From positions 64,418,001 through 64,482,000 of the forward strand of contig OZ260665.1 of NCBI GenBank assembly GCA_965285935.1: a stretch of 64,000 nt of DNA. The letters are read 5' to 3'. Below, one piece after another: positions 22,001 through 52,300 of this stretch; positions within the stretch are counted from its first letter, which is position 1, and each line of letters opens with the position of its first letter. The position numbers were made by a program, and so were the translations under genes. The stretch is from Ophelia neglecta. Lineage: Eukaryota. A model generated the notes under the pieces. That model had not been told where the DNA came from. It saw nothing but the letters and a program-made list of their open reading frames with translations, and searched no databases.

Positions 22001-25000
22001 GGAGTCGGGGTTATTTAATTGGTAAACGCCGAGAGCCGGACCTACCGGCTTGGTATTTCAAAAGCACAAAACGATACAGTTGCTATCAAAAATTGATATC
22101 TATAGACTCACTGGCATCTTCTCCCGTCGAGTTGTAAATCACTTGGGTGACATTTGACCTCGCTGGAGATGGGCCAATAGTGACTTTATTGTGTTTTGAT
22201 TTAAGGCGTTTTACCACTTACACTTATATTTATGTAGCGTAATTGAAAAACGAGTTCCTATTTGTTATTCCAATATTATGCTACACGTTTGAAGTACAAA
22301 TATAACCATGGCACATATTTTTGCTTTCGACAGCACATAACGGTATATTGGTATAGATGTACGTAGTTGTTCATAACTTTCAAATGCAGTTGTCGGCCGT
22401 ATATATGTGGTATACATTAATCATATGTGGATAAATTGAACAATCGTACGCGATTCTACATATGCAGCAAACAATGTTTCTTTTTCTTTGACTGCAATTT
22501 GCTACACCTTTTGTCGATCAACTCGCAGTTACTTTACCAAGTTTCATCAACATCAATCCACGTAAAAGTGTGTTCCTCTTCCACTGGGACTTGTGATTTG
22601 CCATATCTTAAAAAAAATATATAGGCTTATAACATAATGCGTCATTTTTTTTCTATAAAATACAGGGCTTCACATACTCAATCAGTGATTTCAGAACTTT
22701 TACCCGCGTTACGACCTGTCGTTTTGTGGATGTCAAACGGCCTGGAACTTCTCTATCATCTTCAGGTAGAATAGGACACAGCATGCTTTTATAACAGATT
22801 GCTTGAGATAGTCGTCTTTTTTTACATTTTGTACGAGAATATATAAAAAAATATATTCTTAAGCTTGACCAGTGAATTTACATTTCTTACAGAATAATCT
22901 GAGTGAATATGTCATGGACCCTCTAGTTTCTCTTCCGCCGGAAGCTCGAGCGTCCATTGCAGAAGCAGACGATGAAATTTTAGCGGTGCTAGAAGAGGTG
23001 GTGATGTACACGTTTCAGCAAACCGTTTATTACCTTACCAAGGTAACTTAACTCCGTCTACTCCAATAAACATATATACCATATGTCATTCAAATAGACA
23101 TGGCAATAGCCTAACTGGTCCCCGCATATGAATTTTGACTGCAAATGATACACATGTACATGTTTAATGCTTTACACGGATATCAAATGAAACCGATACC
23201 TGATAATCTAAGCCTCAATACTCTTCAGACGTTATATGCCACATTGCCGCTGATCCTTGACAGTAACCCTTTCGCACCTGACTCTGACGATATGGACCAC
23301 CAATCGGCAGGCGTCAGGCAGGTAAGTTGATCAGCAGGCGTTTCACTGAGCAACAAAGAACCACCACGTCTACCTGTACAGTCTTGCAGACATCCCAGAC
23401 AATAGAAAACACAGTCCTACGTAGTCTTTCCAATTAAAAAAGCGACCTCTGCTGCTGCGATTTACTAGGACTAATCATGTCAATTATGTCTTTAATACCA
23501 GGTGTTATCAGTGTACCAATCAGCCTTCAACCTGCTGCGCGATTTCCATCTTCACCGATCCGTGCTCTCCCAACTATTTTGCTACCTCTTCTTCTTTACC
23601 AGCACGTCGCTTTTCAACACCCTTATCGGGAAAGGTAAGATAATAAAACTCTTAATGCCCGCAAAATCTCATATCACCAAATGTCTTAATGATCCTTCTC
23701 ACAACTTAACACAAACAAGGAAAAAGGGCATTGTGATTCAATGTGAAATATTGAACTTGTTTATTATTCCCTTGTTTAATTCATTCAATGATTGAAACGA
23801 TATCGGCGTTCGGTTTAAATTAAATTCACGTATTGTCTATCCTCGTCTGTATCATATAAAATCATATTGACATTGAGTCTGACAATTGGTTCAGTACAGG
23901 CGATCAGTGACTGTCTTTGCTGACTGACACGGGGCTCAGTGAGCGCAGTTCAGTCACGACAATGTCAAAAGTAATAGTCTACAAAGTGCACAATGATATG
24001 TAATTGATGCCATGTCACGTGATGCAATGCATCGTAACAGTTTCTTCCTGCTTAACTTACAACTGCTTGTAATATGCTTAGTGGATGTTTTTGGTCTATA
24101 ATTTGCAGGCGTTTTGTAACGCAAATGTTAATTTGCTGTTTATTTCCTGCTTACTTAGAGTATTTGCAGTGAAACCTGCCTGAAAGACCATCTCTAAAAT
24201 CAGACCACCTGCAAATTCAGACCACTAATGTAATGGCCAAAGTATACTCTTTCAGTGTAAGATAACCTGTGTAAACAGACCCCCTTCCTAATCAGACCAG
24301 TAATTCACAGGTTTCACTGTAATTAGCTACCATGTTACTATTGGATATTATTTGCCTATTGTCGTTGACAGAGTATGATTATACAATGTTTGCTCCATCG
24401 TGATATATCTTCATATGTCGATTTTTGCGCTCCTTATTAACTAACTATATTTATATTTGACCATATATTTTGACGTCCAGTGTTGCCTTCATTGTCACAA
24501 TACTTTGTTCTGCTGATTTATTTAAGATATATCTGTTTTATAGTAAATCTGTTCAAAACAATATCAATCACTTTGAATGTCATGTCCATTTCTCCCCTGT
24601 ATATATGTATAAATGTTATAGGGCGTCCAGTCCTCACGGCCTCGGCTATTACTGGCGTCCTGGTGTTACATTTGATTCGTCATCAATTGCTCGTTTGTAC
24701 ATGTTGATATGTTGTCTAAGTAGCACCAATTAAACTAAATTCAATCAATCAATCCATCCATCTAGGGCCCAGCCAGCGAGACTTTAGGTGGAGTAAAGGC
24801 GTACAGATGCGGGGTAATCTGGACGTCTTGGAGCAATGGGCTTCGGACGTCAAACTATACGAGGAGGCGTCAACCTACCTCGTCAAGGTCAACGCCGTGG
24901 CTGACCTTCTGGCAACACCCAAAGTCCAACTTTTACAGGTAATCTAAGCAGCAAACCCGCCTGGTTGCAAATAAAACCTGTAAAGCAAGCATGTACTGTC

Positions 25001-28000
25001 AATGCCTTGTCAAGCAGATTGTAACATCTGCATGGTTGCTATAAAATACCCTATCAGACTTGGTTCTTTTTCAGGCTGACTGGACGAGCTTGCGGCGAGA
25101 CTACCCTTCTTTAAACGCCTCCCAGCTCCACCACATCCTTCAAAACTACCAGTTAGGTCCAGGGAAATCACGCCCTGCAGCTTGGTCTCCAAAAGCCCCG
25201 GAACTTCGAAACTCTGGTAGGCTATTATCCTCTTTATTCTGTTAGCTCCAGATTACAATTTGACGCATAAGTAAAAGGAGAGTGGTTCTGAATGTGGATT
25301 ACTGAAAAAAAAACGCTTTTCGCTTCAGGTGAGATTTTGGAGAGTTTTAACAATCACCCTCCCTTAATTTTGCCGGGAGAGGGCTTTGTTGTTAACCTGA
25401 GCCACGAGGTCGAAGACAAAACATTCTACGATATTCTCCAGGATATACACTCATCTTTCGGAATAGTGGAGGGTAGGTTGATGGATCAAGCGTGTCATTA
25501 TTGAAAGCCTGTGTGTCAAATGTCCTCTCGAAAACATTCCACTCTCATGATACATACAATGTAGCAAGATAGACAAGTTGGCTTCGTTTCATTTTTTCCT
25601 AGTAGTATATAATCTGTAGATGTGCTTAATCTCGTTTTTATCTCTGATTTGCATGACAAATGTTGTTTATCATTTTTAAATCATTTTCTGAATCATTGCA
25701 TGATCCCCTCGCGATGTCTATATAATTTGATACCTTCCGTTTCAAGGCTTTCTCAGCATGCTCTCTCCTGCTTACCTCTATTGAAAACCTCACATTCCAG
25801 ATGACGTAGACAGCGGTTTGAGTCTAAGTCAAAGTCATGATCTGACTCTTTTTAATGGAGGACAGGTACCGAATATGTACTTCAAGGAAGAACATTTGGT
25901 TCCAAACTTACCAATCACAAAAGACAATAAGGAGAGACAGCGAATCTCAAATAAAAAACATACATCTTCTGCCAATGAAAAGTTGCAACATAGAGAGGAG
26001 CCGCCTGTGATTCCCGCCCCTAAACCTCCTAAGAGAAGACAATCTCTGAAGAAGAAGGAAGCCATGGGAACTCCCGTTCCTGTAAGACCAGCCAGGAAGA
26101 AGAGGGACGCCCGACGTCGGTCCCAGCTAGAGCTCGAGAAGAGGCACAGTGGGTACTGCTCTGAGGCGTCCCTCTCGCCGCGCTCCGAGCCGGACCTCAG
26201 AAGAGTAGGCGCAGTAACACCCCCAACTACAGTGCACGCCACAGAGGGCGTTATAGACACCAATGCCAAGTTTGTGGGTGCTCTGCCTAACTCCAGCGAT
26301 GTGAGAGATACTAATCGTCGTCTTGTTTATGACTCAATGGGGATTGAAGGAAGGTCGAGAGACATAGATGGGGATACTGGAACCGTCAGGGTGACAACAA
26401 ATGAAATCCCCGATCTCGAATCAAGACGTGCGAAATACTCCGATTATATATATGATGAAAGCCATGTTTCGAACGTTCGTAGTACCACAAGTATGCAAAC
26501 AGATCAAGGCGGCACAATACGTTCTACAGCCAATGTGCTAAGATCGGAATCCCTGTCTCGAAAACAAAAGTTTGATGTGCGCAGCCATCTTGCTAAACAG
26601 GCGTCCCGCGCATGTTTAAGTCCCCGAGCATCCGGAGAAAGCGAGTTCAATTCTAGGTTAAACCAGTCAGAGGCTGACACGAGTAAAGACGAAGAAAATA
26701 AACACACAGAAAATAAAATGAGTGTTTCATCTGCATGGTCCTCTGATATTCAATTCACTAAACCTAAAACAGTCTCTAGAAGGGATTATAATCAGGAAGT
26801 AAAAGAAACCGAAATGTCACAGAATGCAGAAAAAACGGTAGAGCAGCACGATGAGGCCAAAATTATATCTCACGACTGTCCGTGGAAGAGCCAGCCTAGA
26901 AGCAAAAACTGCCAAGGTACAGATGAAGATGAAATCTTAATAACCGATCCGCCAACTGAAAAACTCTATCTAGCAGCGAGTAAACCTAGTGTTAGCATAA
27001 CTACTCAACCTGACGATACGGCCAGAAGACAGCAGCATCAACCCCAGCATAGTGTTTTTGACGAGGGATGCCAAGAGAATGGTTTCTTTGATTATAACGA
27101 AACCTTAGAGAAAGAAGAGCCAGTTTACATGAATTTTGACCACGACAACGACGAGGCGCCCCGTCGACCTGAAAAATGCTCTTTGGATAAACGCTGGATT
27201 TCCGGTATAATCTACCCAAACGAGCCAAACGGCATACCTCCTCAGCCTAATAAACCTGCGCCTGTTCTATACAAAAGCAGTCCTGACGAATTTGAGTTGG
27301 GTGAAAATGCTTTTAACAATGAAAATAGTACATATTATTGCGCCAATAACCAGAGTGTCCCATATAGTAGTCAGGGCCCCGTTCCTGATAAGCAGAGCCA
27401 CGTGACAAACAGCGAAGGTAAGTGTTAAGCTCATCTCTAACCTCTTTGCCCCGCCAAGTATGCATTTGGTATTGGTGCTTGCTTATTATCTTTGCTTTTA
27501 GTAAACGTTTCCATATTTTAGAAACTGTATGATATGATTGAAAGGATTATCGACATACACAATTTGATTAAAAGCTTCATAAATGAAAATAATGAATAGG
27601 TTTAATCGCTTCTGATTTGCAAAATGAATAAACTGTATCGAATAGTATGAACGTCAAACAAAGAACTTCAATAACCTCAAAGTAGTATTTAGTTACTATT
27701 AATTATCTGTCGTTGTTGGTCCGATCTCCCAGAGCCTGCTGTAGAAGCCCTAACTTGCTAACAGTGCGCTCGCTGTACATAATAATATTACTATTTTAAA
27801 AGGTGGCGGACCAAAACGCCCAAGCAAGACTAGCTTCTCACATCGTAACCACGCGGACATAGTCAAACAAATCAAGTCCTATAATCAACAAGGTGAAATC
27901 TTTGGCTCTTCCTCCCCGGAGCTTATACTACTCGACCTAGCCAAAGGGGAAGAGGGACTTGGTGTTGGGCTGATAGACGGACTGGTGAGTAGTATACAGG

Positions 28001-30060: not shown

Positions 30061-30183
30061 TACAAACGTCATTTCCTGAACGAGAAAATATCAAAATCAA
30101 CGCATTTTGTAGGCTAGTTTAGGGATTATTCTGAGTGTATTTATTTCTGGCTTTTAGCAAATTATATACAGGCCCTTTACGTC

Positions 30184-33100
30184 ATGGCATACGGAGATCC
30201 TCCCGAAAGGGAAAAACGCAAAAGGCCTGATGATGCGTTTCATAAGCGGATAAAGAAAATAACAGAGTCTAATCTGTTCAATGGTGGTATCATTTTTGCT
30301 ATCTTACTCAATGCTATTTTCATGGCTCTGGAGACGGAGGATGCAATCAAAAAGGCTTGGGGAGAGACCTTGTTCAAAGGCCTGGACTATGCCTTCCTGA
30401 TTATTTACATCATTGAGTTCATTTTGAAGATATATGCTGAACCAAAAAACTACTGGAAGAGTACATACAACGTGTTTGATTTTCTGGTTTTGGTCATGTC
30501 ACTTGTCCAAGTAAGTTTTATTCAGAACTAAAAAATAGAATAAATATAGGCATAGTAGCAATAGGCCATATCGGCATATCCGATATGAAATGAAGCCTCT
30601 TGAAATCGACATTTATATGGCAGTCTCAGTCAGTTGCGTAAGCCTGGATATGTTTGGTTTTCGAAGTTCTTATAAGCATGCGCCTACGTCTTAAAACCAT
30701 GTTTCAATGGGGATAGACCTTGGCATTGGGCTCATTTTATAAGGTAATGTGCCGGTCCTCAATCAGCCTCTCGCAGCCCATCACCGGCACAACTTTTCAC
30801 ATGTAGAAAGCGTAGTGCTCGTTTTTGTAATGTCCACTGATAAACCCATATTGCCTAGGCCATCAGTGGGCTTGTTCCAATGTTTAACACTGTTAATTTT
30901 TGTAATTTCTGTTCTACTTGTAAGTTAGTATAATAAACATGAATACAGTGAAGACGAAGGGAGAAGCGAATAAACCGAAACAAATAATGACAGGCCTACA
31001 TGCCACTGTGGCCTAGGCTCTCGGGCCGAATGTTTGAGTTTGACGTAATAATTATGCAAAGATCTTTTCCCGAGCATATTGACGAGAACTTGTATGGTGT
31101 ATGGTATATTTTATCAATTTTGTTGTTATGTATAGGTCATCTTGGAATGGTCGAGTGACAATGCAGGGTCTAAGTTCGGTGCTTTACGCGTGTTGCGGGC
31201 ACTGCGCACGCTCAGAACCCTCCGAACGGTCTCCTTCATCCGGGGTTTGCAGGTTATTATTTCATGATCTTTAATCTTAAAACCATAATTATTACTAATC
31301 GTAGATAAGGTTAATTTTAGTCGCTTGAAAATATGTCCAAAATAGCCACTTTAATATGTTTAATTTTCACATATAAAAACAATGCATTGTTCCAATTATG
31401 GAACCTTACTATATTCGGCCAATTTGTTATGTAGGTTCTGGTAACTGCATTGCTCGATACCATCCGGCAGTGGGTGATCAACATCATACTACTTTTGATG
31501 CTACTCATGTTTCTGTTTGCCATCATGGGCTACTACTTCTTTGGGTATAAAGATGACGGTGACAAGAAGAATTGGGGAACCCTGGGAAGCGCCATGTTGA
31601 CTCTCTTCAGCTACGTCACGGTAAGACCCTCGCATTAATGATCAGCAATTTTTTTAAGGAATGCATTTAAGTAATTAGCCATTCATACAAGTTCCTACGC
31701 ACCTTGGTTACATCTTGTGATGTAAGATCAGCAGATCCATAGATGTTAAATGCGGCTACATTAAAATGTTTAAATGCATGAAAAGGGAGGATACAATGAT
31801 TTGTGCCATTATAAGAATGCTACAATTAATTGTTCTTAATATAGGGACCGAATATAAGAAAACAACTTTTACGCAGATTAAAATACCTTTAAATTAAACC
31901 AGTTTGAAAATAAACAATCGTAAATCATGCATGATATCCTATTCACGTGCTAATAGATGTTAGTAAGGAGGTCTGTCGCCCTTCATTTTTCAGATGTCTT
32001 ATCTTTAGAAACTTCGTATTTATATTAAAAGCGACCCATTCTCTACCTGTCTTGTCTAAAATATACCTAAAAACTAAGCTGGTGAATGTTGCCAGGTGGA
32101 TGGATGGACTGATCTCCAAGACAAGCTGGACCAGACGAACGCCGCTGACCTGAGTAGAGTATACAGTATTCTCTTCATCTTCCTGGGTCATTTCATATTT
32201 ACAAATGTCTTCATCGGAGTAATCATCATGAATATCAGTGATGCCACCGAAAATTATAAGGTAGACCTCAACAAATGCTAACTACTTATAGATCTATTGT
32301 TTTCTTGTTTTTTATTAGAAGGACCATCCGCTATCTGCACTTTTGACTCACGTGGGTAGCCTCTGCTACCGTTGGTCACAACTCTTCAAACCCACACTGT
32401 AGATCTACCGGTTTCCTATACGATAGCATGATCTGTCTATGTTTTAAAATGTTTTTCAATGGGCCTGTCGCACTTCCCTTCCTTAGCTGATGCTCCCATA
32501 TCTTATACCCGAAAACCAATTTTACTCAGTGATAGATCCCGGGTTACCTTTAAGTTGAAACTCAATGTTTTCTATACAGATTTGCCGGAGTTATCTTCCT
32601 ATCTTTTTAAGATTGACATGGTTTCTCTAAGTGCTGGTTAGTCCATGTAGCTTATCACATGTGACTATATAAAGGTTCTTTAGATGCAATTAATATTCCA
32701 TTGCTGTATTTTTCAAATTTCGTATTTTATTGTATACAGAAAGAGCAGATAGCCGAACGAGAGGCAGTCCTGCGACACAAGAAGGATTTCATGATGAGAC
32801 GCCAGCACAACGACGTCAAGCGAATGTTAGAACGGCAAAAGAGAGGGCAATATTCTAACTTCCAGGTAAGATATATGTGCAACAGATTGAAGAATCTTTA
32901 TAAAATCTAAAATCACGTGTTTTAGAGAATTCAAAGTAATCATGGTATGCCCATCTTATAGTTGTAACCAATAGTTACTGATCTTTGTTACTGAAAACTA
33001 TACAAATGACCAGATGACCCCTACGCAGTTGAACAATAGTTGTTAATAGAAGACCACTGGGGATGATTAACTGTATTTGACAAAATGATATTATGAAAGG

Positions 33101-33974
33101 GACACTAATTATTATGGTTTTGTTTTCTAGGAAATGGTTCAGGAGTTTCAGAAAGCACTGAGACATGATGACTCTGTGATGATGTCAGACCTCAGTACAA
33201 ACATCATTTGGCTGGAGACGTTTGATAGAACTCTTGATCATATGGACAACACCGTCTACAAGTTAGTGTCTATACCTTATTAAGAAAGGACGCCTCGACT
33301 TGTTCGGGCATAATTTATCTTACCGGGAAAAGTTCTCGCGCATACAATAACCCCAATAGTCCCAGGGCGCCTCGATCTGCCCGCTGTATTTACGGTCAAG
33401 AGGCATCAGGTAGATCCGATTTAGACCTGAATAGCACTCGCAGATTTAATCTTGCATATGACGCAATGATTTACCTAGGAAATATGTTGTTTTGTAGTAT
33501 TAAAACAGGCCTTTATTTTTATCCCATTATAAAACAAATGATAACTTAAATTTGAATTGGGCCATGAGACGGCTCTGGACTGACCACTTGATTAATACAA
33601 TATAAATATTAAGACTCCCGAGTACTCCACTTTTCAATGCACATTTCGGGGTTCCGTTCACTCGTCAAAGTTTTACGAAATCGATTAAATCACGGTCCAT
33701 ATATATGTGTAACATGAATTTTGTCAGCAGATCTTCTACATTTTAATTTTAGTTCTAAGATCACTCAATACTATAGTCATACTAAGCTGAGAGTAGTACC
33801 CGTATATCATAGTATGATAGACACACCTGCCACTTGACAAGCGCTCTACGTACGATCGTATCCGGCCATATGTTATTTACTCTTTTCAGGATACAACAAT
33901 TGCATTTTGAAACTGCAAACACCCTGTCAGCAGAAATGGAGGGGCGACTTAGACATAAGTATGGCACTCTCTGA
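30184..33974 (+). CDS. CATSPER3: Cation channel sperm-associated protein 3 (CatSper alpha subunit 3), 378 aa
   Basis: 7 exons: 30184-30510, 31136-31252, 31435-31620, 32096-32260, 32740-32865, 33131-33261, 33890-33974 (TGA). Single 6-TM repeat with EFILKIYAEP..YW..YNVFDF, S4 LRVLRALRTLRTLRTV and pore LFSYVT|VDGW. TVDGW is the CatSper3 signature (vs TLDDW, TLDHW, TQDGW in CatSper1, 2, 4). S6 FIFTNVFIGVIIMNI and a C-terminal coiled-coil region with LRHDD follow. Confidence 0.92.
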
Positions 33975-35497
33975 TATCGGGAATTGCATATGAAAAGATA
34001 CACCTTTTAGATTTTATTGAAGAGTAAACATATCTATCAATACGCTCACATGAAAACGAAACCGTTAATCAACTTCAATTCGGTTGCATTGAAATTCTTA
34101 ACACGTTGAATAAAAGGTGGCCATCAATGAAGATCAATGTTTTGATCTATTACTTAATTACCAAATACCGTACCTGACTTAGTTACAGGTTTTCGTGAAG
34201 CTTTATGTGAGGTGTAGCCATAAAGGTACATTCCACATTATATTATAGAATCAATATGTAGCAATTACAAAGACATGTGCTTTGAAAACCGTCGGGATCA
34301 AATACATTTAGTTAAGAAATCATTTATTGCTTTCATATTTTATTTCAAACATCATCAATAATCCTGTACAAACCGATATACTTGATAGGTATAAATATAA
34401 TGAATATGTTATGCATCTTATGAAATTGAACAATTAGGATGATAGGCTGGATTATCATAAGTGTTCCTTTATTTACAACTGGAAACATCTCGCCGTAAGC
34501 TCCGGAAATATCATGTAGATAATACATGTATATCCATTAATATATATTCAATTTCTATGTAGTTCAACAAGCACAGCAGATATAGTAAAGCACCATGGAA
34601 GCCTGTATGTGCTTCACAATAATCTGCTATAATCTATAGAACAATTTAAGATAAACATGATAGATGGGAAGATAATGATCAAGTCCTGCTAAAAATTATT
34701 GCACGATTGCTAATTTTGTCATCGTGCTACAGCTAGTTAGAGTAGTCCCTCGGATGGTTGAGAATGTCTGCCAACTTGTGCCAACAAGTGAACGCAACTC
34801 TCAGAAATCTTTCAAAATGTTCAAGTCAGTCTGGGTGCCAGGCTATCACGTCCAACGGGATAGACTGCTGGCATATTGCACGTAGCCTGCAAAACATGAG
34901 AAAATTTACGAACAGCTGCTACAAACATGTGGATAAATGAAAATTCTGCCATAGCTACAGAACCAAGCTGGGGGCAACATCTTCAATTATAAATGCAAAG
35001 ATTAAACTCAAAACGGCAAAATACAAAATTACAAGAATTCAAGCAGAATGGACGATGAGGACATAATTTTCATCCAAATACTGTCTTTATTATTGCCCTA
35101 CAAATAGGCCTATCAATGAGGAAATAAAATATAATTGCTTATAAATGTGATCTCGATGATATAGTTACCATCTAGTATTCATGAATATAATGATTCTGTG
35201 GTCAAACATGTCGCAAAACAAGTTTGTGGAAGTGCCTACTCAATGAAAATTATTTTGAGGATCCACTAAGCTTTCGAAAGGGTACCGGACTTAATGTTAA
35301 AAAATTATTTACTCGACAGTTTGAGAATATAACAAGGGGCCAGTGGATGAACTGTTTTATTTACGAACCATAGAGACATATATAATTTAGGTTTTAGCTA
35401 CAGTTCATATAGGTCTATTATACACCATGTGGCGAGTCAATTCTATTCTAAAACACTGACCACTCTTATGCTGGTATCGTTCTGATTCAGTTATCCG

Positions 35498-37693
35498 TTA
35501 CATGAGGGAACATCTGTCTTTAAATGGAGACACTCGTTTGTTGTCAGCATATTTTCCGGTCCACAGGCCAAGGTTCTTGGGCTCCTGCAACATTAAATGT
35601 AGAATAAGGACCAACCGAGCTTCTAAATGCTCAACAGTGACTGAGCCTTCGTAACCTATACAATAACTGAACTTCTTAAAGCAAGATAATACCAGAACTT
35701 CAAAAATCTTTTAATAACCGAGCTTCTAAAATCTAAAAATTACAATCAACGTTTCATTAAGAAAAGGTTTAAATGCAGTTCTGCTTTGATAATATCATAC
35801 ATTTTCGTCATTAATTATTATGAAACACAGGCTTGGTCAGCAGCTAGCAATCTGTATAATAACAAATCCCCAAGTATTGCAAAAGGACGCAGTCTTAGTT
35901 ATTAAACCTCGGATGTAAGCCAAGAGATTTAATAATTCATGATAGACGAGTTCAGGCAAAGGCCCGGCCAAAATATATAATATTGTTAGTACACAATAAT
36001 TCACTACAGTGTTCGTAACCGGCATATAAGCTCTACCTGCATGATAAACTCTATAACCGGGACGCCATGGTAAATTTCCACCTCATTGACATTCACCCGC
36101 GTGGATTTGGCGGGGTTGGTATGCTGGTTTACAGCCTCTTCAACGTCCTAAAACATGCAAATGCAATCAGAACAATGTGTATATTTATGGCCCTTAAATT
36201 GAACTTTGTGTATCATATATGTGATGATTTGTCAATAAGGAGTTTATGTATAGCGACGTTTTTTCTCATTAATTTGTCTTGCTAAGCAATCCTTCAAATG
36301 AATTAATGTCAAACACACACACTTTACGTTAAGGACTTCCACATATCAATTGATAAGTTAACAGAAATTCAAGCCTCGCCGTAAAAATGGGCAAATTTGT
36401 TTTGCCTTTCCGTGGCGACACTTATAAGGATGGACGGGATTGTTTGTCAAGTCCTTGTCTTCCTATATTTATAAGTCAATTCGTATCTTTAATCTATTGT
36501 TAGCTGAACTAAAATCAAGGCTAGTAAATTACTTTTTTAATCAGCGTCCATTCTAATGGACCACCAAGGTAATTTGTTGTTACCATGTTCAGGTTCAAGT
36601 CAGGAAGAGCTGAAACCAAGAGTAAAGAGTAAGGGTAAAAAGAAAGATAACGGTAAATTAATAGGCTAAATACAGGGGGCTGTCTGAATAGAAAAATAAA
36701 TATGTTGGTCTTAAATATACGATAATAAAGTAATGTACAGACACTGAGCTAGATTTTATATGATGACATTTGTGTCACCTCATGAGCTAATATCTATAAG
36801 GCAGACATTGAACATAATTTTAGATATCTAAATTGTTTGTAATTTAGTAAACCTTTCCGCAGGTAGTTGTATATTGGCATCACAGAGGTGGGATCCAGTA
36901 GATGAAGTTTGATAAAGAGAATGTTTAAATCCCGATTGTACTCGACGTCACTATATTCTCCTTTCACTACTGGCTGGATGAACTTGTACACCCATTTACT
37001 ATTTCGTACTTTCTCGGACAGTTTGACCGCCCAAGAACGGCTGAAATAATAGAATTAACACGATTAGTTTCACACTCTTCCACCAAGGAAAGTTTTGCCG
37101 AGAATATAAAATAATAATGTATACTTGTACCGGTCGCTGTCCAGAAAAGCACGGAATGGTGTTTTTGTCTGCTCATCCCTGACGAGGTCTTGGAAAAGCA
37201 GCGTGTACAGGGCAAAACCTGATAATAAACGGAAAGTCTTTGTAAGCGAGATTAATTATATGAAAATGAATCATAATAATACCATTTAAAATCTAATTAA
37301 TGTGAATAGACAGAATGACATTCCATTAGTGCAAATATTTATCTTACCGACTTTTTTCCAGTTTGCACTGGAGAAATAAGAATTCATCTCCTCTTCTATC
37401 GTATCCTTTTTGAGGAGAGTATGTATTGCATATTTATCCTCTAGATTGCATATGGCTTGAGACACGTAGTACACTGCGAATTGCTCGAAGTCAAACCAGT
37501 GCCAATCAATCATATCCTCGTATTTATCCTTTACATGCGAAGGAAAGAACACATCTTTTACCGGGCTTTGACTCTTCACATGCGAAAGAAAAAGATGTCT
37601 GCATGCAATGGTGACTAGGTCCTGGTTGTTGAGAATTGGGGTCATAGTGAGCAAGGCGTCCACCGTCAGGGTATTGTCGTTCACAGTAGCCAT
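35498..37693 (-). CDS. Uncharacterised 298-aa protein with C-terminal CaaX motif (CSLM)
   Basis: 6 phase-consistent exons: 37693-37348, 37218-37131, 37040-36853, 36609-36533, 36147-36037, 35584-35498 (TAA). Continuous frame MATVNDNTLTVDALLTMTP...FEQFAVYYVSQAI...ALYTLLFQ...FLDSDRRSWAVKL...YNRDLNILFIKLHLLDP...KRVSPFKDRCSLM*. Probable non-coding 5' exons lie upstream (donor sites near 38057, 38253 and 40103). Confidence 0.8.
35615..35731. repeat. Degenerate minisatellite (~25-bp period) in the last intron of the CaaX gene
   Basis: ACCGAGCTTCTAAA occurs at both ends, with ACTGAGCCTTC, ACTGAACTTCTTAAA and ACCAGAACTTCAAAA between them. Confidence 0.5.
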
Positions 37694-40600
37694 TGTTAAT
37701 TATCTAATGCCAGAAAGTGGGCTATATCCGATGTGTAAAATTTGGTAACAGATATATAGTTATTTGTAGCACGTCGCACATTGTGTGTATTGTTCAAGTG
37801 ATACTACATCCTATCCGATTTGATTCCACTTCCTTATCCTTTCGGAGCACTATTTTGGCAAGATATTAACATGAACATTCGAATATTTGTTTGTTCGATT
37901 CTTTGCATCTGCTTATATGCAGCATTACCGCAATGATAAGTGTGTTTACACTTCTAAATAATTATGCTGGCGGCCGAGGCATGAAGGTAAACATTCAGGC
38001 CACCATGTGTCCTCTAATCTCATCACGATCCCAGTCTTCTCCACACTTCAGAACTTACTTCCAGTATCCTGCATCTGACTACTTTCAACTAGTGTTCGTG
38101 CGCTCCATTTTGTATCCTATCCAAACTTAGGAGCATGTCATATTAACCTCAATTGCCCATCAACTAAATATATCCGAGTTGTACTGAAAAGATGATAAAA
38201 CAGAAAATTATCCTCGAGTGTATCCCTCAGTGTGGAGTATGGGCCCCACTCACCAGTTTAGTGAAAAGCAGACGGTCTGAGGGATGTGAGCTGGACCGGG
38301 CAGAACAGAACCACCCAAAATAATTCGCTTATATTAAATAGCACTATGTCCTCATTTGATGATAATAAGGCATTAGTAGCTTAACTATGATGCGAGTTGT
38401 TTGGATGGAAAACTATGGTAGGTCTGGAACTCACCGCATTTCAATTAAATCATATTATCGTTGAGCATCCGGTGATAGCAAATAAGAATGCCCCTCTATC
38501 ACAACTAGTTGCCAACTTCACAATTCTGCAATACCATCAGACTGTATTACTCAGACGAGCGTGTGCGCGCAATGGGCTAAATTTATCCTAAGACATGTGA
38601 TACTTTGCTCTTTATTTCTTGGCACGTGGATGGCCAGGAAATGATTCTGGCTTTAGCTGCGTTTGATGTCAGTGTTATCGCAATTAAGCCCAAACAAAAG
38701 GATAAGAAAATAGAACCAAATTTTACCTGTCGTAAGATGTTTCAGCAAGGGGCAATTATCAAGTACACTGCATTTTGTCATGAGTGACCTGAAATGCTGG
38801 TCTCTCATGAATATACCATTGATAACTATTTCGTATCGATGAACTGAGATAGCTTCGTACTGTAACTAATCTAATATGTAAGAGGTCCAGACAGAATAAA
38901 TAACCATGTCTATGTTGAGTTAGTGACATGAATATTTCGAGAAATCATAAAATGCGAATATTATCACAGGTAAATAAATCGTTAGTTTAGATGATCTAGA
39001 TTGACCAAGATAGTAAATGCATAATCTCTTTGAACTTTATGCCAGGGAATACAGCAGTAGAATGTGACTAACTTCATACATACTCAATGATTTAAAGTCA
39101 AGAGTGCAATCCAGTTGAGTTAGTTCATATATATGTAAATTAGTCCAGATTATGAATCCTCTTTAAATTATCCGGTTTAAAGTTAAGGTCGTAAAGGCAA
39201 TCGTAGCTTGTTATAATAATGTTTTTGTCCACGTTTTCTAAGACTTGTATGATATTCCTATATATGTATATAAGGCAATGATTGATAACATTGGCTCGGT
39301 CTAATCTGGAACAATAACACCTATGTTTGACTAGCTTTGACTTAGATTTTGCTTTCAGTAGTCGTTAACATAACCTATATCCTAATCCAAATTACTGATA
39401 TACATGTAGTTTGAACAACCCTAGCAGTGGCTCTATTAATATCTTTTATCATGTTCGCCCTGACCAGATTCATATGATTAATAATGCGTTATTGCAACAG
39501 TGATAATATTAGCCTAACAGTATAATTGGTTTATCCTTTACTGTGTTATAGTTTGTAGGTACATGTTATTGTAAACAACATCAAGCGATAGATTCACTTC
39601 CGAACAAGACTACAATGCAAGGCAAACATATATTCAGAAATGCAACAATGCAAGACAATGTATACAGAGATACGTGATTTTTTAAATGCAACTTTTTGTA
39701 GATCACAAATAAATTAAGGAAATTAATATTATTGCAAAATAATTATGTGATCCGCCATTTTCTATTGATATGTGGTGTTGTTTTAGTCCCTTCTTCCCGA
39801 CTTTCTATACAACGAGACCTAACATGACATTATTATATTAGAAAAAACAAGTATCCAATCGTGTAATGAGATAAAATAGATGCCATGCTGTTTGCACCTG
39901 TCCTACTCACTTTCGGTTATGAATATAATCCCCAAAAATACACTTGTTCTCAAGGTGTTTCTAGCTTTTTCCTGGTTGAATCAGAATTATCGTTGGTTTA
40001 ACTAGTTCACAATATATAACAGAGATTCTATGCAGACCTGGTATGCTCTTGTGTGACATAATTACTTGACGGATAATCAGTAAATGGTATAACGTATACT
40101 TACCCGTTACGATTTGTGACCCTTCTACAGGGTGTAAATCCTGCGACGTATTTAGGAATATTCTTAAAAAAGTCGGCTTCTTGGGGGAAAATGTCCACGT
40201 ACTTTTCGATACAGAGCTTTCGATGTGTTGCTAGACTGTGTATCAATCATTGAAGCTATGCGGGTCATAACATGGCAAGAGTGCAGTGTACACACTCATC
40301 ATGGACCTGATGTATGTGTGGTATATGTCCGTCCCACAATGATGACTAGTTACAGTATGTCGGGATTTACCACCGGGTATTACGCTATGAACGTTGTACT
40401 TTGATAATAATTACCAGCCGTGCAGCTCCCATTGTGGTGATTCTGTTATATTATTACCAGGTTTGACATACAGGGTGCTTGTCATCTGTCCCCACACAAC
40501 CAACTCCCATGGTGGTTCACATATATGGGTCTTGGGAGTCCCTATGTCGCACGATGCATTATGTACCTGTTGCTCCTTTGTTTTCTCCACATATGTCGCG

Positions 40601-41791
40601 CTAAGATCGCCGAGCTTATTTCTAGCCAATGTACGTATTTATAGATTCATTTCGCTTCAGGCCAATAGTTAAACCCTTCTTATAAAGGTGCCTTTTGTCA
40701 TTTGATTCTTTTCAAGCCACAATTTTGTTATCAATGTTATACTTAACATTAAATTAGATTGTATCTGAGTTATATAGAATATGGAATTCCATAATGTCAC
40801 GTGCCCCCAGGGGCGCTAAAAGCGCGATAGTTTAAATGATTCTAAGGCATATTTAAAATTATAATTATTAGTGAAAGTCGTGGCGCCAGATAAATTATCT
40901 TATATAAAGACATATATACATTTTCAAACCTTAAAGGATGTATGACAGGGATAATTTTCATATTTTCAATTTTGATAACGGTATCTCATTTAGAATAGAG
41001 TGGAGCCGTGTATCATAGCATAGAACACTATATCATTATTTTGGCATTGCTCTTTCCTGTCGATGATGAGATGTAGCTACGAACTGGGTTATTTTTTTGC
41101 GATTATATTTAGTTAAAATTGATTCTTTCAGACTACCTCTGTCTTTTGTTAACCTAAAAATTGAATTGAATAGTATTCGGGTCATGAACCATGTAACGCA
41201 AAATCATATAATTAAATATATTGCAGTCTGAGAAGATTTTTTGTCGTTGAACAAAATTAATTCTCCTATTCGACTTGGGTAAACATTGGAAATGGATTAT
41301 GAAAGTTGGAATTTCTGTATCTATCAGTGACAAGCAAGGTTTCTAGAGTTAGTAGTGTGTGGTATTTTACTGTTAATATTATTAAAGATAGTCGCAGAAG
41401 CGCAACACCACGTACACCTCATACTAGTAGCATAACATAAATGGCTAAATGAGTAGTCGTATAGGCTACATCTCACAAATATTGTAATGAGAGTAGTCCC
41501 ATAAACTTGCAAATAAATTCCAACATATTTTCATTGGATTTGAACTAGGTCTGTAAATATAATCTTAGTGCGTTAAAATATGGTCTACTATTAAAATGTA
41601 TACCAATAGAGAAATGAAACTTCTATTAAGAAGTCTTTTCTGGCATCACTTTATTTAGAGCAATACAACGAATGATATTGTACTGCGATGTACATCTTTT
41701 ACATACGCCCAGTAGTCTTTAATATCTTGTAATGAACTTTTTAAACCGCGATAGATCACACGTCATTTGTTTATGTTTAAGTGACCGCAAG

Positions 41792-41865
41792 CCCTAGCGA
41801 CGTTCTTGGATACCACAACAAACTTTTACACACCCTTAGCGACATCGTGGATACCACAACAAACT
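41792..41865. repeat. Local direct duplication (2 x ~33 bp)
   Basis: CCCTAGCGACGTTCTTGGATACCACAACAAACT and CCCTTAGCGACATCGTGGATACCACAACAAACT. Confidence 0.7.
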
Positions 41866-43089
41866 CCGACCGCATTACGTCACGGTTTCCAAGGTGATAG
41901 ACTTAACACGTGGTGGAATGACCCACTCTCGGTCAGTCACGTCTGAGGGTATTTAATGTCACATCATATTTGGAACTGGTTTATATTTCGTTCTTATAAT
42001 ATACTATTATGATTGAATTAGCAAGGAATATGTTAAATTTGATTATAGAATATATAATTCTTCATATGTTAGTTTATTACTATAATTATGAGAAGTTATG
42101 AAAAATGAGGTCACAGTTTTACACCTTCACACCCCTTGCAGAAGGCCTCTGTTTGGAATGTTCCATTAAGTCGGTCAATGACTGTCTACAAAAAATTCAT
42201 TCATGAATGTTGGCACGAAGGAGGGGGATGAGTAGTTTTCTTGTACCGCAATTTGAGGCGCCGTGACTCATGAAACAAAGATTTACCGTGAATTGTAACA
42301 TGGAATTCTTATCATATCTTGTGAACGGTAAAGATGCAAACAAGTGTCCTTTGGGATGTTATGCTATGGTCAATATCATAAAATTTACTGTCTAGTGCTT
42401 TTAAGACGATAGATCTATCTATACACTGCCTTAATATTTTTTAGTTTCCTCACTGATATTGCTTAAAACCCTAGGGATTATGCCAGAATAACGTATGGTT
42501 CTGAGGATGAGGGTCTGAGGATAAGACCTGTACTATAGGCTTTGGGCTAGGAGATGGGCGCAAAACGACATTATGTTGCAATTATGCTAGTTATATTAGT
42601 TTTCAATTTTAGTAGAATATTTACCAATCGAAATCACTTTCTGTCTTCATTTATCAACAAATAACTAATTTTGAGTAAAAAAGTTTAAGTAAGACACGAC
42701 GACTGGTTTAATAGAAACAGCGTTAGAACAAGGGAAACAAGTTTTATTGAGCAATACAACAGGTTTGTGTTTTATACACCTAGGGAGAAGCAATCACTTG
42801 TATCTTTATATTGTAAAATTTCCCACAGTTACTTGTATCTTTACATTGTGAAATTTCCCTACACAATACGAGCTTGCCTCTTCCGATCGACCGTGCGAGA
42901 GTGGAAAAGAAAAATGGCACAATATAAAACAATATTATGTCTCCAAAGCACGTTTATGTAAATCTTGTTAGAAGCATACTACTTTTTATTAACATTTCTC
43001 CTTAAATTTGCTCTCATGATACATAATCGAAATATAATTGCATATTTTTGGTGCTAATACTTCCATATCATCAAACTCGATACAAACAT

Positions 43090-46000
43090 CTATATATATA
43101 TCATTCGGCATCCACAACAAAATGACAGCCAGCTGCTGCCATTTTTTCTCTTGTCCAGACCCATTCCAATACTGTTGGTATGATCTGAAATAATGTACTC
43201 AGTACGTATTAAACCCATTCAACTGAGTGACATAAGTTATAGCCTTACATTGTTAGTCCTCCAAATAGATCTATATCTTTGAAAATATGCCGGGCATTGA
43301 GTTGGTCTCGGAATTACCTGAGATTTTTTATATGATGACAGCTGATGGGAGGGGGGGGGGGGGTTGTAGGGGGGGGATGCATGATAATATCCATGGCATA
43401 TCTAGGAGTTTCCAACGGGTTTAAGAAATAATACGGTACTGACAATACTGTTACACTCAATAAATTTCTCAAGATATCAATAAAAGGAACTGGGGCTTCA
43501 AACGCGCGCAAAACGTCACCTACTATATACAAACTTAGGCAAGTTCAAAACCACAATCCTTTAGCAGCCATCGACTGTTTAGCCATAAACTTGCATTTTG
43601 TCAGCATTTTAGTGCATCAGTCTATCGCCAACGGCAAGCTATACTATGACAAACCGACAACAGGGATTTGCATCAAACTTACATCACAGCAATATTGTCA
43701 ATAACGCAATAGTATGTTCCTTGAAATTAGTCACAAATGCCCTTCTTCAACCTTCGCCTATAAATGCTCTGAAAGAGCCCCTATGGCTTAACCGACTTAT
43801 CTCAGACTGGAACCGCCTAATTATTTATTCCAAAGGTAGGGAACAAAATGATTTGCTTGGCTGGATTTATTATGGATACACAAACATATAACTAAGTTGA
43901 AATTGAGTTAAGAACTGGAAGCAAAATAATTGCAAATACCGACAATGTTGATCACAGGGATTTTAACCCCAAAACCCTTTGCAATTAAACAAAACGAACT
44001 TTTATAAATTGATTGCATACCTTTTACTGCTATCTGTTGGTATACCTTATTGTTAACAAAAGGATGTAATCAAATAAAGACGTTATGATATTGTCATAAC
44101 CACTTATATCGTAATATTGGAATGGTTTATTTTCTTCGAGGCTGTCTATCTTAGGTGGACAAAGTATAACATCCGGTTAGCCACACTATATCTACCATCC
44201 TGCTCTTTTTCGCAAATGGGTTCAATTTAAATATACATCATAAATAATGTAGTCAAGTCGTGGAAATATACAATAACAAGGCAACAGATGTCAACCCTCA
44301 GATACAAATACCGAATACAAATACTTGGCAAATCTTGACTTGGATAAATGCCTAGATTTGATTTTGATAAATGTTCTATTTCCATATTTGGCTTGATGAA
44401 TAATTCCAGGCTGTCCAAATGTTCTTTCTACTTTTATCAGTTAAAAGAACTGGTAGGAAACAATCTGGTCGTTTCCACTATATGTCGCATGGGCAAAACA
44501 GAGCAAAGGCGCTTTGGCATGCTCTAAGATTTAAAGACAGGTTTTTGTGGCTGACAAAAGAGATACAAAACTCACTGTTCGCCAGTTTTCCCCATTAGTG
44601 GCTACAAAATACATGCTTTCTTTGTGCCTTTCAACAAAGTAGGCAGGAAGTGTGTTTACTCACCAACAATTTGCCGGCTCTCCTCGCTAGTATCAGCTTT
44701 AATCTCATTTAAATAATCTATAATTGCTATACAGTCCCTGTAAAAGTTAACAAAGTACATTAGGATATATAGTTACTGGTATCGATGGTTGACATTCAAG
44801 CAAAAAATCAAAAATCGTCTGGGTCATGGAACCTGGTGAAGATTAAGGCAAATTGTTCTTATATTTCTTATAAGGGGTTTGTGGCTTTTAACAAAAGACC
44901 ATCCCAAGGCGGAAGCACCCCCCCCCCCCTCCCGGTTACAACCCTACCGTAAATAGCTTGTCAGATGAATCTGAGTGTCTATGACTTCTTCAGGATCACC
45001 TGATATATCGGTGGCGGAGGTTTTGTCCGAGCCATCGTTACCTAGTTTAGTTTGGAAGAAGGGAACATTTTTAAAATATGTTCAAATTAACGCAATCACT
45101 CTCTTCTTATTTAAGACGACAGATCACCCTAAAACTGATACAGATAAAAGGAATTACCAAAGTCCAGTTTAAATTTGACGTGCAGGTTGTGTACTATTTT
45201 CAGTTCTCGCGCGAGTAACCACATACACGCTTTGAGCGTTGCCATGACTTTAGTTTGATCGGCGGAAGGATTGCTGGAACTAAATTGGAAATCCGTGTTT
45301 AACTCAATGACAATTGAGCTACACATTAGCCTATGTCACCCTGAAAGACAAGACTTTACCCCACTGATTATGTATCCAGAAAAAAATAAATGACAATGCC
45401 GACAGTGTATGTCTACCTTGAGAAGTTATTATAATTGTATCTATCTACCCTTTATCCTAGTTCTAACTGTCCTCTTCAAATTTTCCGAGAGCTTTAAGCC
45501 AGAGTTAGGGCCTCAATTCTCCATTAGCTCTTATAAACTAAAAAAATCTAAAAAAGAATATCCAATTTACTCAAAACATAGACGTTATATAATAGCTCTC
45601 AGCTGATTCTGATAGAGATCTCTATGTTTGGTTTCTTTTTCCTGTTTTTAATTGCTGACCTTAGGAGATTGTTAAGGTGATCTTTGGCGTTGGTGAAACA
45701 ATTCTTACAGCGACGTCTGGCGCTGGCTAATCTGTCCGCTAGTTTGTCACTCTCAACAAATGGCGATTTTATCTCCACCGCAAGATTATGTAGTTCAGCA
45801 ACTGCCTGGTTCGTGTCCGATATACTCTGGAACGAAATGTTTGGCACACTGATATTATCATTATCATTAAATTTCTTATGTATTCAAACAAGCATCTTTG
45901 AACAAGTTTCAATGATCTATTAGTGAAATGCTTCTCGAAATGACTTGCAATATTGGAAAACGATGTTGTTACAGACGAAATACAAAAAACTCAATTTCGA

Positions 46001-49363: not shown

Positions 49364-52300
49364 TCATTGGCGACTCTGCTGAGAGAAATGCTGATATTTT
49401 TGTCTTTGTTCGTTGATCGCAATATTTCTGTGAATGTGTGATCTCGTTTTCACATCTCGCGGGAACTCTGTGGCGTTCACAACACATCTACGCTCCTCGT
49501 AGTGTTTAAGAAGGCTGTTCCACATTTTATCACGGCACAAAAGGTTCTTGTTTCCTGTAAGGCATAATGGGAAGAATAAAATTAAATAGAATAACGAAAT
49601 GTACCTGTGATGAGCCCCCCCCCCCCCCCCCCATAACGTTACTTGGCAGGGTGCAAGGAACCTTAACGGCCTGGTTATAAACAATAGCACCGGTGTTTTC
49701 TGCTTTATATCTCGTGTAGACCAAGATGTAGCTCATGCGGGTACTTTTGAAGATGCAATGACCGACAGCGAGGGGTGTGGCTTGAAATTATCATTAATAA
49801 GGGAGAATTTTCTAACAAACTAAATAAATATATAAAGATAGTCTATCACATCACCTTATATTCGTGTCGTTTGGCAAGGCCAACTATCTAGACAATATTT
49901 AACTTACTGGTCGTGTGGGAGTACGGCTTAGCTTAACTTAGGATCGATAAAACACACAATTAGCCCTGAATTAAAACAAATAATGGTAATAGGATGAACA
50001 ACCATCTCACTAATATATCCTCCAGTGTGTTATATCCCTATGTTTACATATTCGTTATGTCAATTAATCATGTTGCTCTTTATGACAGATAATATTTGCC
50101 TCAAATCACTAGGCGATAGTCAGGTTTCTCAAAGCTCTGAGAAAGTTATTAAGTAAATTCCAACCCACCAAGTATTATGAGTCCCCTTCTGGCTCTTGTG
50201 ATGGCAACATTAATCTGATGGTAGTCAATGATAAAACCCATGTTTCGTTTCAACCATCCGACGGATGGTTTCTTCTCGATTTCGTATTGGGGAAGTGACC
50301 GGACGCAGCTCAAAATGACATAGTCCCACTCTTCTCCTGCAAAATAAGGATAGCTTTGCAGTACCTAAAACTTGTCAGAACTGTCCGTCGTGTTAAACAT
50401 GTCAGAACTTATCAATTGCTTATTAAGCGTTTGAAATATATGTTAGCTGGCCAGTTCGAACAAGGCCTAGCATTTAGTATAACATAATGAGGAATTGACA
50501 AATAAAATGCTCACCCTGTGCAGAAACTACTGTGTTAACAGTAGGCTCTATATAGCCACATTCCACGAGTGTCTTGGAGATGTCGGAACACTGGGCTTTA
50601 TACTGGGACAATACAGTAATAAAGCGATATGGGACTTTATGTAAGTTGACCATATCCGAGAATATCCTCACCTGATAATATAAAACCTAATAACTGATTA
50701 TTTTACATATATTTGCGAATGCTAGTTCAAGTCTGTAATATATCTAATTGCATGTTTACACTAAACGGCAGGGATACCAGTAAATAACCCCTTTTTTGAA
50801 AGGCTTCAATTTATATGACTTCAGTGATTTGAGTTTCTATAGACGTTTTTTTGTAAAAAAATCACTTACCGCGTGATCCCTTTCAGCTTCATTGCTCTTT
50901 GACTGCTCGTTTCCGTCTTCAGTGGACACACTTTGTGTCTTCTCGGCTCCCTCCACGTGGCAGAAGACAATTGGACACTCTATGTTCGGCCAGATGTTCA
51001 ATGGTTGACTAGACCACGCACGAGACAACGGCGTCTGAAGTTTTACATTTGCGTAGAACTGCGCTGCAGGAAACTCGACTATCCCAGGATGCTGACAGAT
51101 AACACCACATTTTTAACGAGTGCTATAAATTTTGGAACTTATTCTACGAGTTTTGTGAACTGATTAAGAAAGAACATAAAAACGAGAATTGTGAGCGCAT
51201 TACCATCCTGTATTGCTCTCTGAGAGGTACTGCGTCGTTCTTGTATCGCTCAAAGAGAGACTTTTCCAGTCCAAGTGACTTGGCCACATCATTTTTCACA
51301 ATCGGTCTCAGCTGCTGATGATCGCCAATAAGTACAACTTGCTGGGGTTTGTGTGATACAAGTGGAATGAGAGTTTCCGGTTCCATACACATACCAGCCT
51401 CATCGACGATAATTTGCCGCACTGCAGCATGCTTCACCAGACGAGGGCTGGCACTCGCAGCACATGTACAGAGAATGACCTCATATTTAGCTATCTCCTC
51501 AACCGAAGCATCAGCCACGGTCTTCCTGTAGTCGTCGATCTGTTCATCTGCTACATTTTCTGGGGTTTTTGTGTTTTTTGCAAACAAAATATCATAGTCA
51601 ATGAGTTTCCTGCAGTGACTATTTCCTTCGAGACGAATCAGATGATGCAAGGCGACATCTCTGTGACGCCGCAGAGAGTGCAGGCTGTAGTTTTTGTTCT
51701 GACGAGAGTAAATAGCTGAGTCACGCGGTATAGGAAACTCTTGATTCACCAGTGCATCACTGTACACTCTAAGTATTTTCGGGCACAGCTTCCCAAGGCG
51801 TTCCTTTAAAAAAGCTGGAAGAGAAAATGAAATAAACGTTAAACTGGTGCCCATCTGAGAGCAGGTTAATTACATCCGCACTGATAGAAAAACTGCCACC
51901 TATTAATACAAAAATTGTGACATTGTTGACGTAGGACAATGTTTTACATACTGGTCACGACATCGACAGAGCTGTTAGACGGCCCACAGTAGAGAACCTG
52001 CTGACTCTCTCCTACTCGCTTGGTTATAATTTTATTCAGATGACAATACCAATAGACAAGCTTAATTCCCGTCAATGTCTTTCCGGTTCCTGAAGTAAAA
52101 CAGCGTCAAGACTAATAACTTAACTTTACTTATCTGAAATACTTTTCTTGTTTAACGAAACAAGTTATCGTACCACTGCTAGCTTCTAGATATTAAAGTA
52201 GACGTTATTATCAGGTAATATAAATGAACTCACCGGGTGGGCCTTGAATAAGAGTGAAACGTCTGGAGAGAGCACGTCTTATGGCGCCGGTCTGACTACG

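Follow-up and report, generated by a model that had tools for sequence, protein, structure and literature searches.

The window, a stretch of 64,000 nucleotides of Ophelia neglecta DNA, carries on its minus strand a six-exon gene whose product ends in a CaaX box; neighbouring genes, on both strands, are recognised by their domains (Table 1). The nearest of these, a single-repeat cation channel gene, converges on the CaaX gene at a distance of about 2.2 kb. The best PDB sequence matches of its first exon are Nav/Cav channels, and its pore motif T-V-D-G-W spans an intron. This channel is presumably CatSper3-like, and the gene with RA and FHA domains is one that we take to be probably RADIL/RASIP1-like. 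In the HELZ2-like helicase, two ORFs share the RNB domain, with a break at about 55600 due to either an intron or a frameshift. A literature search on the cation channel returned nothing. As no window neighbour was seen beside the homologues of the CaaX gene in 24 short loci (a total of 69 kb, a weak test of synteny), no functional link between these genes is claimed.

Table 1. Coordinates of the CaaX gene, its parts and its neighbours in the window.
Feature	Position	Strand	Basis and remarks
Gene with RA and FHA domains	19273-27428	+	Domain matches
Single-repeat cation channel gene	30118-33283	+	Pfam Ion_trans
Candidate polyadenylation signal AATAAA	35356..35361	-	Consensus match only; 137 bases past the stop
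Exon 6	35498..35584	-	aa 271-298 and stop; 21/28 identical to P0002
CaaX box CSLM (Cys295), predicted prenylation site	35501..35512	-	Sequence and homologues
Exon 5	36037..36147	-	aa 234-270; 26/37 identical to P0002
Exon 4	36533..36609	-	aa 208-233; carries T-T-N-Y-L-G motif; 24/26 identical to P0002
Exon 3	36853..37040	-	aa 145-208; carries N184, K189, H191, D194; 53/63 identical to P0002
Exon 2	37131..37218	-	aa 116-145; 26/29 identical to P0002
Intron 1	37219..37347	-	Phase 1; common to the family
Exon 1	37348..37693	-	aa 1-115 plus one base; ATG at 37693; 76/115 identical to P0002
HELZ2-like helicase	51144-57994	-	OB_HELZ2, RNB and AAA_11 domains

The exons of the CaaX gene join into 897 nt that encode 298 amino acids and a stop, with zero internal stops. 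All five introns are of the GT-AG type, with phases 1, 2, 1, 0, and 0, and the GC content is 0.39-0.52 in the exons versus 0.25-0.34 in the introns. Support for the ATG as the start comes from its favourable context (A at -3 and G at +4) and from a TAA that lies in frame three codons before it. The encoded protein has a mass of 34.8 kDa and a pI of 6.3. Its Kyte-Doolittle maximum over 19 residues is 1.19, so that, as judged by hydropathy, the protein has no transmembrane segment or hydrophobic leader. Searching with exon 1 brought up P0002, a full-length homologue of 307 aa on a 1,389-base contig that is probably a transcript of a related species. The model is 76% identical to P0002 over 296 aa, and the match extends through all six exons. 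When the model is compared with a spliced homologue locus, L120, the differences at codon positions 1, 2, and 3 are 114, 73, and 193 over 294 codons, and position 3 has the most differences in every one of the six exons. By these comparisons the gene is real, intact, and under purifying selection, and the splicing of its six exons in Ophelia neglecta is supported by homology. A preliminary description of this DNA had proposed six canonical, phase-matched exons encoding a 298-aa protein that lacks a signal peptide and a transmembrane segment; the intron boundaries, the match to P0002, and the codon-position pattern bear out the exons, and the hydropathy maximum bears out the rest.

A shorter exon 4 (donor at 36584) also stays in frame and would give 281 aa; it was rejected because P0002 favours the long form, and gene models with other acceptors were dropped since the 298-aa model fits P0002. 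The frame of the last exon is included in the stop-to-stop ORF list (35498-35710). Three contig runs of one sample, which may be the same source as the window, span the gene region without joints. The contig run X1 fits from 37274 onward, inside intron 1, and is preceded by at least 255 unrelated bases, possibly an insertion allele or a repeat. No second copy of the gene was found within the window, and an Rfam search of 33000-44000 gave no match. An acceptor-like AG on the minus strand at 37703, ten bases upstream of the ATG, suggests that the 5' UTR is interrupted by an intron and that a non-coding exon lies upstream. Ahead of the exon 6 acceptor, intron 5 has a 25-base tandem duplication at 35687-35734 and, near 35622, a short copy that resembles it.

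The family around this gene was collected by several searches. A phmmer search of 1.84 billion representatives, with exon 1 as a single query sequence, returned 57 matches, 55 of them family members. P0002 as the query retrieved 12 proteins of comparable length, and of the 25 loci from a metagenome scan, 24 are genuine. The two remaining exon 1 matches (P0057 and P0059) are chance matches in short multiple stretches of PKD-repeat and trypsin/lectin proteins. The remaining metagenome locus, L144, was dropped because its match lies inside an ORF read as isoleucyl-tRNA synthetase, and G078 was dropped from the series of genome profile searches. Names are carried by 6 of the 30 clusters looked up, and three more named proteins appeared in the P0002 search. 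The named homologues come from four annelids, two nemerteans, one brachiopod, one bivalve, and one moray eel, and every one of them is labelled hypothetical or uncharacterised.

The annelid members are Ridgeia piscesae NP493_510g00001, Lamellibrachia satsuma LSAT2_000337, Owenia fusiformis CAH1791943.1, and Helobdella robusta HELRODRAFT_168985. The nemertean members are Lineus longissimus LOC135503614 and Tubulanus polymorphus LOC141908060, and the brachiopod and bivalve members are Lingula anatina LOC106175071, a model without the middle part, and Tegillarca granosa KUTeg_000855. These eight spiralian proteins share 35-50% identity with the window gene over most of its length and have the same motifs, and six of them, as annotated, end in a CaaX box. 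In contrast to these relatives, the window gene lacks an N-terminal extension and is interrupted by two additional introns. The divergent eel protein, Gymnothorax javanicus GJAV_G00170760 (P0058, 250 aa), is homologous over about aa 9-240 and is 29% identical to the window model (hhalign probability 99.9, E 1.6e-32). It lies on a long branch, does not keep K189 and H191, and is without the last ~55 residues and the CaaX box; its gene model may be truncated or incomplete, or it may represent a free core domain. P0054, P0056, and P0066 form a divergent, eel-like subgroup with P0058. In the trees, one of which omitted 19 near-duplicates and short matches including the eel protein, the window gene pairs with P0002 and little else is resolved.

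Profile collections place the family nowhere. Full-length P0002 matched no Pfam family at E<=0.1, a Pfam scan of 16 family members gave no significant match, and the four exon pieces searched at E<=1 gave nothing except one sub-threshold match at E 0.15. NCBIfam, PHROGs, and PADLOC profiles were blank or at chance level for the family, and the ESM Atlas, queried with exon 1 and P0002, returned no usable match and was uninformative. The earlier view of the gene as a member of an unknown family therefore holds: about 55 homologues are known, all relatives are uncharacterised, and neither Pfam nor the PDB, searched by sequence and by Foldseek, contains a characterised family that matches. A literature search with 12 identifiers of the named relatives found no paper, and topic searches found no description of the family at the level of titles and abstracts. 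In the spiralian-specific set of 37 oyster genes of Wu et al. 2020, no family motif was seen in supplement 2 (PMC7441323), in a comparison made by eye, not by alignment, that covered up to 400 residues of each sequence.

The AlphaFold2 model, built from a 53-row alignment headed by P0002, has a pLDDT of 92 and a pTM of 0.88. Fifteen helices and two short strands make up the model, which contains no long coiled coil, loses confidence only at its ends, and agrees with the mostly helical protein that had been anticipated. When the C-terminal 90 residues of a relative were modelled by themselves from a 6-row alignment, the pLDDT was only 49; this poor folding of the isolated tail, with its shallow alignment, is consistent with a single domain in which the tail is packed on the core. 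A Foldseek search against the PDB and viral models at E<=0.001 gave no match. In a comparison with 48,161 chains, VIA-align reached a Z of at most 5.9, which is below the background of the tool for helical proteins, and the best Z in a second look was 4.9; these fold searches scarcely tested residues 229-307. Profile searches of PDB sequences gave spatacsin (E 0.25) and PfCRT (E 0.84), both of which are chance matches. The weak structural neighbours include Apc2 (8a3t_T; Z 5.9, rmsd 3.1, 90 aligned) and Cul3 (4ap2_B; Z 5.7, rmsd 3.3, 89 aligned), and the cullin-repeat neighbours as a group reach Z 4.2-5.9 over 77-97 residues, which is background level. Cullin-repeat bundles correspond to under a third of the chain at 8-14% identity and with no Pfam match, and no kinship is claimed. 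On the predicted model, no known counterpart of the fold was found in the PDB, and a new fold is not proven.

The two invariant aspartates, D25 and D194, are located at helix N-caps in this model, as are Q42 and D68. Many other polar residues are well conserved, namely R32, K40, K113, K114, Y120, D130, R181, N184, K189, H191, T218, T219, Y221, D284, N285, and R287. In the eel protein, K189 and H191 are replaced by M and S.

The window protein ends in CSLM followed by TAA, with the cysteine four residues from the C-terminus, and the last exon is confirmed by homology. The a2 position is the aliphatic L and the X position is M, which is compatible with prenyltransferases by the rules given in PMC11152559. 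A cysteine at -4 occurs in 14 of the 16 homologous proteins that reach the C-terminal block; the boxes are CAIM, CSIM (twice), CTLM (twice), CVIM, CLVM, CALM, CFIM, CQIL, CIIL, CSIS, CSLL, and CHIM. With a background cysteine frequency of 0.02 the binomial probability is 2e-22, a value that is overstated since the rows are related. At the DNA level, all ten loci that reach the end read C-x-x-M/L and then a stop, and in three of them five extra residues precede the cysteine and the CaaX box is still terminal. In all cases seen, the box closes with M, L, or S, preceded by an aliphatic residue. The two exceptions, as annotated, are P0069, which has C-C-L-I at the same place followed by 20 more residues, and P0063, which switches to unrelated sequence just before the cysteine; both are gene models. 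Despite 4-5 inserted residues, the position of the cysteine is fixed relative to the stop and not to the fold, as is characteristic of a prenylation signal. Judged from these sequences, selection clearly maintains the CaaX box as a signal at the terminus, and Cys295 is predicted with high confidence to be prenylated.

That the terminal cysteine is instead structural, as a metal or disulfide ligand, or that the motif stays unmodified and the protein soluble, is highly improbable. The eel relative without a CaaX box and the two annotated models without a terminal one would fit such a soluble protein. Against this, the cysteine follows the stop and not the fold when residues are inserted before it; the restriction of the last two positions to an aliphatic residue and to M, L, or S also speaks against it, as does the fall of model confidence at the last residues.

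The nature of the lipid is less certain than its presence. As X is M, L, or S across the family, it is a prenyl anchor in general that is kept and not a farnesyl group in particular. According to the parts of PMC11152559 consulted, human FTase farnesylates CSIM, CAIM, and CVIM completely, modification of CIIL with geranylgeranyl by GGTase-I is likewise complete, and CaaM boxes can receive either lipid; each of these four boxes occurs in some relative, and CSLM itself is not among the four-residue boxes found in those parts. The CIIL, CSLL, CQIL, CVIL, CAIL, and CDIL endings of relatives point to geranylgeranyl. The farnesylation put forward in the preliminary description is thus a likely prediction for CSLM, but it probably does not extend to those relatives in which X is L. 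The basic residues noted near the box are present, with five among the 15 residues before the cysteine and a net charge of +3, although the basic stretch is modest and the charge ranges from -2 to +3 in the family, being negative in 2 of 14 relatives. No second cysteine is nearby in the window protein. Some relatives have N-terminal extensions that start with M-C, contain an early cysteine, or start with M-G (P0004/P0071, P0061, P0010, P0074, P0016, and P0048; P0003, P0006, P0037/P0080, and P0078). A second anchor by palmitoylation or myristoylation is possible in these proteins, and the window protein is without such an extension.

In its predicted CaaX targeting, the window protein is similar to the Ras family, lamins, G-protein gamma, and Pex19. 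The boxes of lamin B (CAIM) and KRas4B (CVIM) recur unchanged in relatives, as does CSIM (PMC11152559, in the parts consulted). In contrast, the window protein lacks a GTPase, coiled-coil, or other known domain, and its body is unrelated to these proteins by Pfam and fold search.

The best reading of the gene, with a probability of about one half, is a putative prenylated, non-enzymatic membrane adaptor that binds a conserved partner. The proposed mechanism starts from the intact six-exon gene, whose purifying selection is evident by homology, and from its product, which is predicted to be a single compact domain with the last 90 residues packed on the core. The CaaX box, which comparison of the relatives indicates to be under selection as a terminal signal, would direct prenylation, aaX trimming, and methylation if established CaaX biochemistry applies. 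The modified protein would then be located at the cytoplasmic face of a membrane, helped by its weakly basic tail, and might act there as an adaptor rather than an enzyme. The positions of D25, D194, Q42, and D68 at helix N-caps suggest a structural role and count for the adaptor, and so does the loss of K189 and H191 in the eel protein. The weak structural neighbours, which are helical interaction bundles (cullin repeats and Apc2) at background-level scores, were counted on the same side. On the other hand, the many conserved polar residues are as expected of an active or ligand site and count against an adaptor.

These polar residues are the basis of the main rival, in which the protein, prenylated and tethered to a membrane, would be an enzyme or ligand sensor with an undescribed fold and would act on a lipid or membrane protein, a reading that is tentative and somewhat unlikely. 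Its candidate site comprises the helix with R181, N184, K189, and H191, the T-T-N-Y loop, and D284-N285-R287. These residues are near-invariant across annelids, nemerteans, the brachiopod, and the bivalve at 35-76% overall identity, and a single domain of 300 residues is of typical enzyme size. Nevertheless, no enzyme was matched by family, motif, or fold, the invariant acidic residues fall at helix caps, and K189 and H191 become M and S in the eel.

It is very unlikely that the protein forms homo-oligomers that assemble by themselves into a prenylated coat or scaffold on membranes, for instance in cilia or sperm. The lipid anchor and the possible second, N-terminal anchors of some relatives agree with a coat, and so does the convergent cation channel if it is, as we presume, CatSper-like. 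Against a coat stand the lack of a long coiled coil in the model and the absence of the window neighbours from the surroundings of the homologues, weak as the test of the short loci is. In addition, the family was not recognised, on inspection by eye, in the list of 37 genes from the spiralian ciliary-band screen (PMC7441323, supplement 2).

The kind of lipid anchor is ordinary and already known. What appears new is an unnamed, old, mainly spiralian family with a domain whose predicted fold is unmatched. A domain of 300 residues that is conserved over four spiralian phyla, confidently modelled, and without a Pfam or PDB match is a defined structural target in a clade with a little-studied cell-biological toolkit. 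If the protein were catalytic, or if it had microbial relatives, it would represent a new enzyme fold or an old transfer. At present, the evidence describes an unnamed family awaiting a function and not a new mechanism.

The origin of the family was approached through its introns and through searches of microbial sequences. The intron 1 donor is seen in three homologue loci and its acceptor in eight. Similarity is lost right after the Gly of the W-K-K-x-G motif in 47 of the 68 proteins that have this motif (near-duplicates included), and since this is exactly where intron 1 starts, the unnamed majority of the family resembles animal genes. The intron 2 acceptor has the same phase in 22/22 genomic homologue loci, and the intron 3 donor is the same in 23/23. 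As introns 1-3 share place and phase with divergent relatives, they are old. Introns 4 and 5 are absent from relatives, with no break at aa 233 in 10/10 loci and none at aa 270 in 9/9; they are probably later gains, and by this comparison only these two look lineage-specific.

It had been suggested that the domain resembles bacterial and fungal proteins and was acquired horizontally, with introns and a lipid anchor gained afterwards. Such a transfer is compatible with any function. The patchy spread over many spiralians and one eel, with no named match in other groups among the 57 representatives, is in its favour, as are the core domain without a CaaX tail in the eel and longer, unnamed microbial proteins that we presume to have a similar helical start. 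The searches do not support it. A profile search of 1,991 GTDB genome slots, among which some genomes are repeated and one is unscored, and which had no positive control, gave a single match (E 1.2e-4 per genome) inside a 385-aa ORF that presumably encodes a HipA-like kinase, and this match was judged to be due to chance. None of the 124 GTDB candidates and none of the 68 viral candidates from pattern scans was confirmed. No match was found in plasmids, phages, PHROGs, NCBIfam, and PADLOC, nor in a profile search among proteins of 626-2000 aa, and fungi were covered by the protein-collection searches only, which is a weak test. With no credible microbial match in any search, the one exhaustive search having been run with exon 1 as a single sequence, the resemblance was not reproduced, and a history in which the introns were added after a transfer has against it the three old introns shared by divergent relatives and the intron 1 breaks in the three unnamed fragments closest to the eel protein. 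An origin from bacteria or fungi is therefore quite unlikely.

The homology of the eel protein over about aa 9-240 and the intron 1 break in the eel-like fragments suggest instead an old animal gene, or core, that was patchily retained and in which introns 1-3 were already present. A more far-reaching scenario, which is doubtful, would have an old core, still free-standing in a fish and possibly microbial, gain a wrap-around tail and a prenyl anchor in a trochozoan ancestor. The resulting membrane-tethered enzyme or signalling effector of undescribed fold would have been kept in annelids, nemerteans, brachiopods, and molluscs, and would mark a membrane pathway that is absent from the usual model animals. 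As a minor observation on the junctions themselves, the spliced relative at L120:297-1199 has five additional residues precisely at the junction of intron 3, which probably reflect an alternative splice site.
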